63,999 bases of DNA, filler included, from Basidiobolus ranarum (GCA_040143965.1; 3 parts of 3 records of this genome joined end to end with filler, not necessarily neighbours in it), one strand, 5' to 3'; positions 54,281 to 59,438 are shown, counted from the whole stretch's first letter. The notes: generated from the sequence alone by a model not told the origin. Made by a program: numbers and translations.

Positions 54281-54446
54281 GTGAACTAAAATCCAAGGCA
54301 ACATTAAGTTCGGGATCAGACTATTACCGTTTCTGGTTCCGCGTTCCCGTTGTCGAGAGTTTCCCGTAACGGGGCCATCCAAGCTTGTTAATCTGGTGAG
54401 ATAGTGTCATGCGATGCAATTACCACTACGGGCTTGGAGTATATTC
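54281..54446 (+). ncRNA. Putative H/ACA snoRNA, snR37-like guide for LSU Psi2944 (copy 1)
   Basis: Hairpin GGCAAC/GUUGUC plus CGGGAUCAGA/UCUGGUUCCG, with pocket AGUU | CGUUCCC complementary to LSU GGGAACG-UG-AGCU. AGAGUU lies 14 nt downstream (imperfect H box). A second hairpin ends at AUA-NNN. Confidence 0.72.
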
Positions 54447-54784
54447 CTAACAAACAAATATCAAAATAACTCACTGATTCGAAGACAAACACACTCAAAT
54501 TAATCTCATCATAGTATATTTCGCCAATGTCCTCAGTGAAACATTTATATGAAACACATGATCTCAATATAATGTCATATTCATATAGTAAACTAAAACT
54601 TACCATAGTCATAGCAGCTGAACCATGTTTTGAAGCTGCTAATTGAACGAACGAGATTTAGAAATATATATCCAGTTGATTTTCAGATGAATATTCTTGA
54701 TAGAAGGGGTAATTATAGGTATCCCACAATTATTGAAATTTTATTTTCCATTTAAATTTTTCAACTTCGCTTGTTGTATACTTC

Positions 54785-54950
54785 GTGAACTAAAATCCAA
54801 GGCAACATTAAGTTCGGGATCAGACTTTTACCGTTTCTGGTTCCGCGTTCCCGTTGTCGAGAGTTTCCCGTAACGGGGCCATCCAAGTTTGCTCATCTGG
54901 TGAAATAGTGTCATGCGATGCAGTTACCATTACGAGCTTGGAGTATATTC
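54785..54950 (+). ncRNA. Putative H/ACA snoRNA, snR37-like (copy 2)
   Basis: Same 166-nt core with divergent flanks. Most stem substitutions keep pairing as G-U. Confidence 0.7.
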
Positions 54951-55306
54951 CTATATTCAAATTATCCAAAACAATTCAATATATATGTATGTGATCAAAC
55001 ATTTTCTGACACGAAATGAGCATGTTGAGGTTAGTAAAAATAAATTGTTGCTAGTTCAACGGATGATAAGTGGTGGTTAGCAAGTTATACGTGCTACCTT
55101 GTGAGTGGCGGTCATAATTAGTGGTAGAAGTCGAAGGTTATACAGCATAGTAAAAGGACCTTACTACATCATTTTACTGTTTCTCCGATCATACTCAATC
55201 AGACAAATATGGGAATTTTTAAAATAAGAATATTAAGGTGAGTCCCATCAACTCAATATTTTTTCAAATCTCTATAAATTCTAGATCCTTCACTTCGTAA
55301 TAAATT

Positions 55307-55472
55307 GTGAACTAAAATCCAAGGCAACATTAAGTTCGGGATCAGACTATTACCGTTTCTGGTTCCGCGTTCCCGTTGTCGAGAGTTTCCCGTAACGGGG
55401 CCATCCGAGTTTGTTAATCTGGTGAGATAGTGTCATGCGATGCAGTTACCACTACGGACTTGGAGTATATTT
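55307..55472 (+). ncRNA. Putative H/ACA snoRNA, snR37-like (copy 3)
   Basis: Same core. Compensatory C-G to U-A change in the 3' hairpin relative to copy 1. Confidence 0.7.
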
Positions 55473-55784
55473 CCATCAAATTAACTTAAAATTCAACTCT
55501 TTATTGAATATGCAAAATACTTTTAAATATTCACTTATGTTAACGAAGCATTCATCTTAGGTGGATACGCCAGGAGGATCATAACAATAAGGTAGGGAAA
55601 AATAACGATGGATAGTTAGAGTGTTCAATAAAATGATTGTAAAATAGTATAGGGGGTAAGTGATGTTATGTACAATATATATGTATACTATGCAATCAAG
55701 TTAGAAAAGGTCGTGTTTAACTAATTTGGAATTGATTTTTTACCTTGTGTATGGCGGTTACACTTGGTCGTAGGCTGGGGGTAG

Positions 55785-56234
55785 TTATTCGTCATAAGGA
55801 AGTAGTTGGACCTGTTCAAACACACCCTCAACTCCTTCTATATCTCTCGATGCATCCTCTGACCAGTCCTTCTTACATTCTGAACTCTCAATCAGTACAT
55901 ATTCGTCCTGTTTGGCTGACACCAGGTATCTGGTGGACTGATAAATACCCAGTATCGCATGATAAAATAGAAGACCTAGCGTGATGAAAATGGATAGACT
56001 AAGCATCCCAAGGATAATGAGAGCCATGCTGTCGGATATGGAGGCAAATAGATGCGGGAGTGGGAGTGCTGGGTTTAGCAGTGATTGTAAATCCATACCA
56101 GGTACAGCTACAGGCCCATTCTGTTGAATATCATAATCACTTTCATTCGTCGAAAAGAACTCCTGGGAATTTACTGCCTCGGCAACTCTACGGTATGAGA
56201 AAACAATGGCAAAGATAAAGGATGACACTACCAT
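55785..56234 (-). CDS. Membrane protein 3' exon/ORF, copy 1 (C-terminally truncated)
   Basis: Hydrophobic segments. GAA>TAA relative to copy 2 removes ELPPAYDQV. Upstream exons are unresolved, possibly extending to ~56808. Confidence 0.45.
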   Translation of the reverse strand: MVVSSFIFAIVFSYRRVAEAVNSQEFFSTNESDYDIQQNGPVAVPGMDLQSLLNPALPLPHLFASISDSMALIILGMLSLSIFITLGLLFYHAILGIYQSTRYLVSAKQDEYVLIESSECKKDWSEDASRDIEGVEGVFEQVQLLPYDE

Positions 56235-57364
56235 CTCTAGCTGATATGTGGTTTCTTGAAAGATGCTCTAGTAAGTGTGGTGGAATGCCTCCAGAGTGCT
56301 AGTAATAGGAAAGAAAGGTAGGGAGGTTTGTTGCTTTTATGGCCTGGTGAGTTCACACTCGAGTGGTCAGAGTGGAGTATGCTTACATTTAGTGTTGCAG
56401 ATGTATCCCGCACTACTAAACAGAAGGTAGAGAAGTTTCTGGCATATGTAACACTACTATGCTTAGACTGGAGTCCAAACATATCTCCATAGCATCTGTG
56501 CACTCATGTATCCAAAGGTAACTCAGCTCCTTTTGCCATTTGGAGAAATATTCTGTTTCGGACACATGTTGCGCATCTCCAATCATAGTTTTCTGGAGAA
56601 CATATCTCTGTACATGATTTATGCGTGACCGGAATGTATGAACTCCAGCTTGCACTCACTTAGTTATATGGAAATCTGGTTCTAGGTCTACATAATTATT
56701 TATCCACTCTACTATCCATACTTACTCATAACCATGAGAAAGCTGGTTGTGATAGCACAACACACTGTACAGAACAGCATGAAGTAAAACCTTGAACCGT
56801 ATTAGCATGATCTACACCTACATTCAAAATGTAATGGATATTGAACTTCAATATTGGCAGTTGATCTCGTTTAAAGTTTGTAAGTACTAATGAATATAAT
56901 AAATCAACGTTGACTAACAGAATACCATGACGAATGGCTGTTTACTTAGCACCATCATATTATTGCGTACTATAGCAAACCAGTGTCACACTAATCTTTA
57001 AATATTATAGCCATCTTGATTATGACCATTCTCAGAACCATTCACAGAAGTTGACTTACCTATTCGTAAACATTAATATGACAGTATCTTGAAATGGTTT
57101 GTTGACGTCACCGTCTATGTCAGTTTAATTCTATTCTACAGAAATGCTTGGGATCCATTAAAATTACAAAATAGGGAGCTCAGCCACAAGAGTTGACTGG
57201 TTTTATCCAATCGAGTTGGTCTCTACATCACCATGAAAATAGATATCGGAAGTTGAATGATGACGATATCATGAGTATTCCTGTATACGATGGTATAAAA
57301 GGAGTTGGATAGTTTCCTACTAAGATCAAACTACCTTTCATTTAAAAAACATTCACTAATTAAA

Positions 57365-57829
57365 ATGCCTTCTGCTCAATGCCAAGCTGTCCAATGGGTC
57401 TATGCCAAGGGTGGTCAGATTCCTCCTAATGCCGTTCAAGGTGGTGCCGAAGCCGATGGCAAACCTTTGTATATTGGTCGTCAACACTACGAAGGAAGTG
57501 AACAAGTCGGAAAAGTAGCTGAACACATCAATGGCCTTGCCATCTCATATGGCAACAAAGAAGTTGTACTTCCTGACTATTACGTCCTTTGTGGTGATGC
57601 CAAGCAACTTCGCTGGGTTGAATGCAATGGACCCGCATCTGGTGAGAGCTACACTCCTTTACAAGCTGGTAAAGAAGCTGACGGTAAAGAGTTATACATC
57701 ACCAAGACCCGCTATGAGGGTGGAGAGCAAGTTGGCAAATCAGGACCTCATATTGCAGAGGGTATGCTCTTTGCTTATGGTGGCAAATCCAAGTCTTCCA
57801 ACATCTACTACGTCCTCAGTCTTGCCTAA
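57365..57829 (+). CDS. DM9-repeat (DUF3421) lectin-like protein, copy 1
   Basis: Two DM9 repeats (WV...GQIPPNAVQGGAEADGKPLYIGR; WV...LQAGKEADGKELYITK...YYVL). ATG at 57365, TATAAAA at ~57294, no signal peptide. Confidence 0.9.
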   Translation: MPSAQCQAVQWVYAKGGQIPPNAVQGGAEADGKPLYIGRQHYEGSEQVGKVAEHINGLAISYGNKEVVLPDYYVLCGDAKQLRWVECNGPASGESYTPLQAGKEADGKELYITKTRYEGGEQVGKSGPHIAEGMLFAYGGKSKSSNIYYVLSLA

Positions 57830-58252
57830 TCACTCTATTGAGATCACTTGTGGAAGATAGCAAGAAAATGGATCAAGGTGTTTGTAAATTTATACTTGGA
57901 CACTTGCTGTAATACATATTGTGACTCTTGTACATGCACTTTCGCTATTTACATTTGTTACGAAATCTAAATAAAACTTGCTACTTTAATTAAAACTTTA
58001 AATGTGAAAATATATATATTGTAAAAGTTAATGAGAAAATGAATACTGAACATATTCAAATAGCATTAACGATTATTAGAACGGTATGGGAACTTGGTGT
58101 TATCATAATCATATTATGGTTAAATATTTATATCTGCATCATTTGTTATCTGCAGGCGATGAAAATTAGTTTCATTAAATAAATCATAGTCCCATAATAA
58201 ATATATCGAGTATATTCCTTTAAATATTCCAACTTTGGTTTCTGAAAACTTC

Positions 58253-58418
58253 GTGAACTAAAATCCAAGGCAACATTAAGTTCGGGATCAGACTATTACC
58301 GTTTCTGGTTCCGCGTTCCCGTTGTCGAGAGTTTCCCGTAACGGGGCCATCCAAGCTTGTTAATCTGGTGAGATAGTGTCATGCGATGCAATTACCACTA
58401 CGAGCTTGGAGTATATTC
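58253..58418 (+). ncRNA. Putative H/ACA snoRNA, snR37-like (copy 4)
   Basis: Same core with a unique 5' flank that retains GTCCCAT and TTTAAAT. Confidence 0.7.
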
Positions 58419-58756
58419 CTAACAAACAAATATCAAAATAACTCACTGATTCGAAGACAAACACACTCAAATTAATCTCATCATAGTATATTTCGCCAAT
58501 GTCCTCAGTGAAACATTTATATGAAACACATGATCTCAATATAATGTCATATTCATATAGTAAACTAAAACTTACCATAGTCATAGCAGCTGAACCATGT
58601 TTTGAAGCTGCTAATTGAACGAACGAGATTTAGAAATATATATCCAGTTGATTTTCAGATGAATATTCTTGATAGAAGGGGTAATTATAGGTATCCCACA
58701 ATTATTGAAATTTTATTTTCCATTTAAATTTTTCAACTTCGCTTGTTGTATACTTC

Positions 58757-58922
58757 GTGAACTAAAATCCAAGGCAACATTAAGTTCGGGATCAGACTTT
58801 TACCGTTTCTGGTTCCGCGTTCCCGTTGTCGAGAGTTTCCCGTAACGGGGCCATCCAAGTTTGCTCATCTGGTGAAATAGTGTCATGCGATGCAGTTACC
58901 ATTACGAGCTTGGAGTATATTC
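58757..58922 (+). ncRNA. Putative H/ACA snoRNA, snR37-like (copy 5)
   Basis: Duplicate of copy 2. Confidence 0.7.
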
Positions 58923-59272
58923 TTATCTTCAAAATATTCAAATTACCCAAAACAATTCAATATATATATGTATGTGATCAATCATTTTCTGACACGAAAT
59001 GAGCATGTTGAGGTTAGTAAAAATAAATTGTTGCTAGTTCAACGGATGATAGGTGGTGGTTAGCAAGTATTATACGTGCTACCTTGTGAGTGGCGGTCAT
59101 AGGTTATACAGCATAGTAAAAGGACCTCACTACATCATTTTACTGTTTCTCCGATCATACTCAATCAGACAAATATGGGAATTTTTAAAATAAGAATATT
59201 AAGGTGAGTCCCATCAACTCAATATTTTTTCAAATCTCTATAAATTCTAGATCCTTCACTTCGTAATAAATT

Positions 59273-59438
59273 GTGAACTAAAATCCAAGGCAACATTAAG
59301 TTCGGGATCAGACTATTACCGTTTCTGGTTCCGCGTTCCCGTTGTCGAGAGTTTCCCGTAACGGGGCCATCCAAGTTTGTTAATCTGGTGAGATAGTGTC
59401 ATGCGATGCAATTACCACTACGGACTTGGAGTATATTT
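59273..59438 (+). ncRNA. Putative H/ACA snoRNA, snR37-like (copy 6)
   Basis: Near-duplicate of copy 3. Confidence 0.7.

Follow-up and report, generated by a model that had tools for sequence, protein, structure and literature searches.

What is encoded by a sequence of 166 nt that occurs six times on one strand between positions 54281 and 59438 of a 63,999-nt stretch of Basidiobolus ranarum DNA (GCA_040143965.1; three parts of the genome joined with filler, hereafter the window)? An earlier note, made by inspection of this DNA, had read the repeats as a structured RNA, likely a box H/ACA small nucleolar RNA (snoRNA) that guides pseudouridylation of the large subunit (LSU) rRNA at the position of yeast Psi2944. 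Our analysis supports this interpretation, in that every prediction of an H/ACA guide that lent itself to testing agrees with what we found, and we consider it probable, with somewhat better than even confidence, that the RNA is a compact H/ACA guide that is functionally equivalent to snR37 and SNORA10 and is directed at the equivalent of LSU U2944.

The six copies (c1–c6; table 1; positions within the 166-nt core are given below as core positions) are 95–100% identical, and the 100-nt flanks of different paralogs are only 57–69% identical; the near-identical cores and divergent flanks had been recognized in the earlier note, whose limits for the array are exact. A 38-nt core pattern has six matches versus 0.00 expected from 100 shuffles, and a low-stringency BLAST search of the whole 64-kb window found no core copies or fragments beyond the six. 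As also claimed, no open reading frame (ORF) is common to the copies, and just scattered ORFs of 31–74 aa overlap the array. The high copy number itself has to be qualified, since the six copies are three old paralogs (95–98% identity to one another) multiplied by two through a recent 3.65-kb segmental duplication rather than six independent genes. Because the whole block was duplicated, the flanks of c2 and c5 and of c3 and c6 are alike, as are the downstream flanks of c1 and c4; the upstream flank of c4, which is held by a unique 325-bp spacer between the two duplicated blocks, is the only separate one within the duplicate pairs, giving four independent upstream flanks in total. All copies lie on the + strand with a spacing of ~504–522 bp, the three paralogs being 504 and 522 bp apart. 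The c2 core differs from that of c1 at core positions 43, 104, 108, 110, 120, 139, 146, and 151.

Upstream of all six copies, and thus in four independent flanks, we find TCCCAY at −63 to −65 and TWTAAAT at −34 from the first conserved base. This pair has six matches in the window versus 0.25 expected and occurs nowhere else in it. Plant small nuclear RNA (snRNA) promoters are described as consisting of an upstream sequence element (USE), RTCCCACATCG, and a TATA box (bioRxiv 10.1101/2025.01.12.632625). The copies are like these promoters in that RTCCCAY precedes a TATA-like box by ~30 bp, with the box itself ~34 bp from the conserved RNA start; they are unlike them in that agreement with the USE, which has 11 positions, is limited to its first 7 and that the host is a fungus, and we regard the likeness as resemblance only. 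We infer that each core is an independently transcribed small-RNA gene, probably transcribed by RNA polymerase II; no run of four or more T was found within 48 nt downstream of the core. Two further observations concern the flanks. Three independent downstream flanks (54447–54475, 54951–54985, and 55473–55500, + strand) share a loose CAAAT...AAAA(Y) pattern 5–25 nt past the core, which might act as a 3′-end formation signal. In addition, an exact repeat of the final 11 nt of the core (GAGTATATTCC) lies at 58208–58218 (+ strand) between the TCCCAT and TTTAAAT of c4 (E 4.2); it could be chance or the remnant of an older copy's tail.

Several near-identical copies with diverged flanks could also be expected of a repeated DNA element without RNA function, either like a short interspersed element or a miniature inverted-repeat transposable element or as a nongenic local satellite. 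We consider this very unlikely given that the other ~58 kb of the window hold no copies or fragments, that no A-rich tail, tRNA-like part, or terminal inverted repeats were noticed in the copies, that the copies share one strand and a regular spacing, that each of four independent flanks has a promoter-like pair at a constant distance outside the core, and that variation falls on stem positions where pairing is mostly kept, as described below.

The + strand of the core folds at −51.9 kcal/mol (z −2.44), with 1 of 200 shuffles folding as well, and the − strand folds no better than its shuffles (z 0.14). Eight G-U pairs of the proposed structure (18–73, 34–58, 36–56, 105–151 in three of six copies, 106–150, 118–141, 125–136, and 126–135) would be mismatches on the − strand. 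An H/ACA fold of hairpin, hinge, hairpin, and tail is available on the + strand only, with a 16-nt leader and an extra hinge hairpin as departures from the standard arrangement; constrained to stems 17–22/69–74, 31–40/52–61, and 98–108/148–158, it has −49.3 kcal/mol, 2.6 above the best fold. The distance of 14 nt from the pocket to AGAGUU given in the earlier note is what we measure between the upper stem and that box (G61–A76), and 15 nt separate the second upper stem from AUA (A145–A161), in comparison with a range of ~14–16 nt described from target position to H or ACA box (PMC7991803). That note had called both boxes noncanonical. AGAGUU does deviate from ANANNA, of which the core contains matches at positions 21 and 38 only, both within the 5′ hairpin; AUA is described as an accepted variant of ACA (PMC7991803, PMC6984369), which leaves the H box as the sole truly off-consensus box, and our literature search for an H box that reads AGAGUU returned nothing relevant. 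Conservation between paralogs decays at 165–167, that is, 2–4 nt past AUA, and we set the presumed RNA end there. A loose two-module detector that demands an upper stem, a pocket, a lower stem, and an ANA motif 13–16 nt past the upper stem, with the last ANA 3 nt before the end, accepts the real RNA, rejects its reverse complement, and accepts 1 of 1000 dinucleotide shuffles, figures to be read in the light of a 3′ end (166) chosen from the conservation boundary and of the weakness of shuffles as a null when the RNA is structured.

Differences among the copies are distributed unevenly along the RNA. Core positions 1–97 are invariant in all copies except at position 43, and this includes the pocket strands CGUUCCC and AGUU (27–30), whose invariance in all six copies had been claimed correctly. 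Leader, 5′ hairpin, and hinge together have 1 variable column in 97, compared with 10 in 69 for the 3′ hairpin and tail (Fisher p 0.0007). Variation in the 3′ stem keeps pairing at the two places that had been singled out before: pair 104–152 is C-G in two copies, U-G in two, and U-A in two, and pair 101–155 is A-U in five and G-U in one. Pair 105–151 is U-A in three copies and U-G in three, and pair 108–148 is broken in two of six, so that three of the four variable pairs stay paired.

For the target predicted for the 5′ pocket, we scanned four complete eukaryotic rDNA units (L049, L001, L064, and L012; completeness confirmed by Rfam) taken from metagenome contigs, and because these units were fetched with a 17-nt motif of the LSU target, are not host rRNA, and contain the site by construction, the scan speaks to how rare an equally good match is rather than to the site in the host LSU. 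In a flush bipartite scan, the best site for the pocket was the U of GGGAACG-U-G-AGCU in four of four units, with a predicted guide pairing of 7+4 bp (one G-U included) flush around that U; shuffled pockets scored as well at any U of the ~5.3 kb of rRNA in 20 of 2000 cases for L049 and 16 of 2000 for L001. Given the way in which the units were obtained, the conservation of the target rests on the Rfam LSU_rRNA_eukarya consensus, in which this stretch is capitalized, that is, conserved. Aligning the same consensus to the table of yeast modifications (PMC5699541), with UGU of the H92 loop as Um2921/Gm2922/Psi2923, places the target U at yeast 25S U2944, a pseudouridine guided by snR37, and besides the anchor 2921–2923 the consensus agrees with the table in having A at 2946, C at 2948, C at 2959, and U at 2975. 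The earlier note had arrived at this uridine from an LSU sequence, and consensus and table bear it out. We dropped a guide role for the 3′ pocket, the loop of which has 5+2 nt and differs between paralogs. Other long, uninterrupted complementarities to rRNA (core 24–33 with the LSU 5′ end, 145–155 with a segment of the small subunit rRNA, and 98–109 with the LSU) were also set aside, the count of such 9–12-mers being within chance; those of 145–155 and 98–109 belong to the lower stem and differ between paralogs.

The core was also compared with other classes of small RNA. It contains no Sm-like site of the form RAU(3–6)GR, its + strand has neither a C box (RUGAUGA) nor a D box (CUGA), and the scan for tRNA and tmRNA found none. 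Likenesses to 5S rRNA, U3, U5, the U1 and U2 loops, and a spliced leader came from motif resemblances and were dropped, there being neither an Sm site nor boxes nor support from Rfam. An RNA of divergent spliceosomal or spliced-leader type deserves separate mention because of the U5-like case: loop I of U5, which we take to include CUUUUAC, is matched by the 11-nt apical loop of c2 and c5 (CUUUUACCGUU), and a tandem array with an snRNA-type promoter layout would suit such a gene. We nevertheless hold this to be the least probable explanation of all, close to negligible, since the loop reads CUAUUAC in four of the six copies, the Sm site is lacking, no Rfam snRNA or spliced-leader family matches at E up to 10, and GUUCGG past the putative leader would be a poor splice donor.

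Among described RNAs, yeast snR37 is the closest parallel. Its 5′ hairpin modifies U2944, its 3′ hairpin combines a lengthened lower stem with the absence of a substrate pocket, and its 5′ leader is important to a function other than catalysis, snR37 having a scaffolding role; human 28S U4521 is the equivalent of yeast U2944, with SNORA10 as predicted guide (all bioRxiv 10.64898/2026.03.20.713187). Like snR37, the B. ranarum RNA has a guide in the 5′ hairpin for the same predicted target U, an extended 3′ lower stem without a real pocket, and a 5′ leader. Unlike snR37, it has 166 nt instead of 386 nt, an H box that reads AGAGUU, and six gene copies, and it is without the internal 5′ and 3′ branches that bind Upa1–Upa2 and Rbp95, for which 166 nt leave no room; the 5′ pocket is free of internal branches, and the 3′ hairpin consists of one stem interrupted by small internal loops. 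With SNORA10 it shares the predicted site and a size within the canonical H/ACA range of 150–200 nt. SNORA10 is encoded in an intron and uses both pockets; the genes described here have separate promoters, and of the two pockets only that of the 5′ hairpin looks fit for use. Rfam includes a SNORA10 model, and the comparison of the core with Rfam at E up to 10 shows no similarity to SNORA10 or snR37. The main text of a fungal snoRNAome paper mentions neither snR37 nor Basidiobolus, and our literature search turned up nothing on Basidiobolus snoRNAs.

A third comparison concerns snR30/U17, with which the RNA shares an H/ACA-like fold, a 5′ leader, and, in three of six copies, the m1 motif AUAUUCCUA (PMC7601244, Table 1). 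This string lies at core 161–169 of c1, c2, and c4 (54441–54449, 54945–54953, and 58413–58421, + strand), where it covers the tail and presumed 3′ end. An H/ACA-class RNA with another job, either a scaffolding or processing snoRNA of the snR30/U17 type or a guide for, for example, an snRNA, would accommodate the architecture and the m1-like string, and a high copy number would be in keeping with an assembly factor needed in stoichiometric amounts; snR37 itself is described as having a scaffolding role. However, the string is altered in c3, c5, and c6 and is situated in the tail and not in the 3′ pocket, m2 (AAACCAU) is absent from the core, and the 5′ pocket is invariant with its complement flush around a U. 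We judged the m1-like string to be a coincidence, dropped the snR30/U17 identity, and consider a different H/ACA function improbable.

Several points weigh against a guide RNA, in addition to the limits noted above for the detector and the rDNA units. No Rfam family matches the cores, either at gathering thresholds across the whole window or at E up to 10 for array and core, so that the comparison with Rfam H/ACA families proposed in the earlier note came back empty; the weak matches on the array at E up to 10 are in the spacers and at chance level. The H/ACA fold is not that of minimum energy, the best fold being a different, three-way arrangement, and it requires an additional 4-bp hinge hairpin. 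Its hinge is without a canonical ANANNA, AGAGUU having A1 and A3 but U at position 6. The covariation is not significant, with 216 of 500 shuffles reaching the observed score, and six closely related rows are too thin as statistical support, even though the stem variation itself is as the earlier note described; the whole 5′ hairpin never varies, and no substitutions therefore probe its structure. With 11 bp, the predicted guide duplex falls short of the guide region of snR37, for which 16 nt are reported; a search for orthologs with an exact 22-nt core pattern gave 0 matches in metagenome contigs and genome contigs, and no other fungus is known to us in which a modification guide is encoded by six genes with a promoter apiece.

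A competing explanation is an abundant, lineage-specific small nuclear or nucleolar RNA of an undescribed class, transcribed from snRNA-type promoters, in which the invariant leader and 5′ domain act by base pairing or protein binding and not by pseudouridylation, and for which the LSU match would be coincidental. Copy number and the fixed spacing of TCCCAY and TATA are more like snRNA genes than like fungal guide snoRNAs, there is no canonical H box, the best fold is three-way, Rfam offers no match, and a match to rRNA of equal quality is reached by ~1% of random pockets. Against this explanation, the match falls exactly on a guided pseudouridine known from yeast, among roughly 1100–1400 U of the rRNA; guided pseudouridines in yeast rRNA number a few dozen. 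Both ANA motifs are at ruler distance, the second of them at the end of conservation, and no Sm site is present. We regard an undescribed class as unlikely, if the most serious of the competing explanations, and continue to favor the H/ACA guide.

For the H/ACA guide we propose the following mechanism. RNA polymerase II would start ~34 bp downstream of the TATA-like box, helped by the upstream TCCCAY, and would produce a capped transcript of ~166 nt that retains the 16-nt leader. The transcript would fold into a 5′ guide hairpin (6-bp lower stem, 8+7-nt pocket, and 10-bp upper stem), with AGAGUU after it serving as a degenerate H box, and into a 3′ hairpin with an 11-bp lower stem and almost no pocket, with AUA three nt before the 3′ end. 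Assembled with Cbf5, Nop10, Nhp2, and Gar1, the RNA would use its 5′ pocket to pair with LSU rRNA in the peptidyl-transferase center, binding GGGAACG and AGCU, which flank a single uridine of helix H90; this uridine, the equivalent of yeast 25S U2944, would become pseudouridine. What is unusual about the system is its degenerate H box, a gene dosage of six, and a promoter of the snRNA type. Given these three features, we keep alive, as a doubtful proposal, a mainly noncatalytic or different role in which an abundant multicopy RNA, made from SNAPc/USE-type promoters that an early-diverging fungus has retained, would dock with its invariant leader and 5′ domain on H90 of the nascent peptidyl-transferase center, chiefly as a stoichiometric assembly chaperone and not as a routine guide; under the same doubt, it would be either a minimal, ancestral form of the bifunctional snR37 particle or an RNA unrelated to H/ACA that converged on the site.

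The coordinates of the RNA genes, their parts, and the surrounding features are collected in table 1. Each duplicated block contains, besides three RNA genes, two further features. One is a gene for a protein with DM9 repeats (Pfam PF11901, E 6e-28), the ORFs of which have identical 174-aa translations in both blocks. The other is a minus-strand ORF of 149 or 158 aa with a hydrophobic central stretch and C-terminal ends that differ between the blocks; no Pfam family matches it.

Table 1. Positions in the window of the RNA genes, their structural and promoter-like elements, and neighboring features
Feature	Window position	Strand	Core position	Details
RNA gene copy c1	54281..54446	+	1–166	166 nt
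RNA gene copy c2	54785..54950	+		Paralog B; 95% identity to c1
RNA gene copy c3	55307..55472	+		Paralog C
RNA gene copy c4	58253..58418	+		Duplicate of c1; single difference, position 151; own upstream flank
RNA gene copy c5	58757..58922	+		Duplicate of c2
RNA gene copy c6	59273..59438	+		Duplicate of c3
Leader (c1)	54281–54296	+	1–16	
5′ hairpin (c1)	54297–54354	+		Lower stem core 17–22/69–74 (6 bp)
5′ pocket strands (c1)	54303–54310 and 54342–54348	+	23–30 and 62–68	AUUAAGUU and CGUUCCC
5′ upper stem		+	31–40/52–61	10 bp; 11-nt apical loop
H-like box AGAGUU (c1)	54356–54361	+	76–81	
Hinge mini-hairpin (c1)	54363–54373	+	83–93	4 bp
3′ hairpin (c1)	54378–54438	+		Lower stem core 98–108/148–158 (11 bp); internal loop 5+2 nt
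AUA (c1)	54441–54443	+	161–163	
Promoter-like pair, c1	54216..54253	+		TCCCAT −65, TATAAAT −34
Promoter-like pair, c2	54722..54757	+		TCCCAC −63, TTTAAAT −34
Promoter-like pair, c3	55243..55279	+		TCCCAT −64, TATAAAT −34
Promoter-like pair, c4	58190..58225	+		TCCCAT −63, TTTAAAT −34; within the unique spacer
Promoter-like pair, c5	58694..58729	+		Copy of c2 pair
Promoter-like pair, c6	59209..59245	+		Copy of c3 pair
Segmental duplication block 1	54276..57920			Three RNA genes, minus-strand ORF, DM9-repeat gene
Segmental duplication block 2	58246..61881			98.25% identity to block 1 over 3660 aligned positions
Minus-strand ORF (149/158 aa)	55785–56234 and 59724–60200	−		
DM9-repeat protein gene	57365–57829 and 61331–61795	+		Duplicated with the RNA genes
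Prolyl-tRNA synthetase gene	51720–53909			91% identity to B. meristosporus; next best matches at most 66%

Elsewhere in the window, we observed a thiamine pyrophosphate (TPP) riboswitch (Rfam RF00059, 59.7 bits) at 15708–15848 on the minus strand, located ~90 nt 3′ of two minus-strand ORF pieces (16780–16412 and 16370–15939) that, by eye, look like an NMT1/THI5-type thiamine-biosynthesis gene. Fungal TPP riboswitches are usually found in introns of the 5′ untranslated region, so that a location on the 3′ side is noteworthy.

Apart from its copy number and promoter, the RNA described here would be an ordinary housekeeping RNA, and the presence of six gene copies may point to a need for large amounts of it. 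If our interpretation is true, a guide for the conserved A-site pseudouridine (yeast Psi2944, human U4521) would for the first time have a candidate in a fungus of zoopagomycete grade. The presence of three snR37 traits in compact form would bear on whether the scaffolding architecture of snR37 is ancestral or an elaboration of yeast, and the TCCCAY/TATA pair, with its fixed spacing and its likeness to the plant USE, would provide a handle on snRNA-type transcription in early-diverging fungi.

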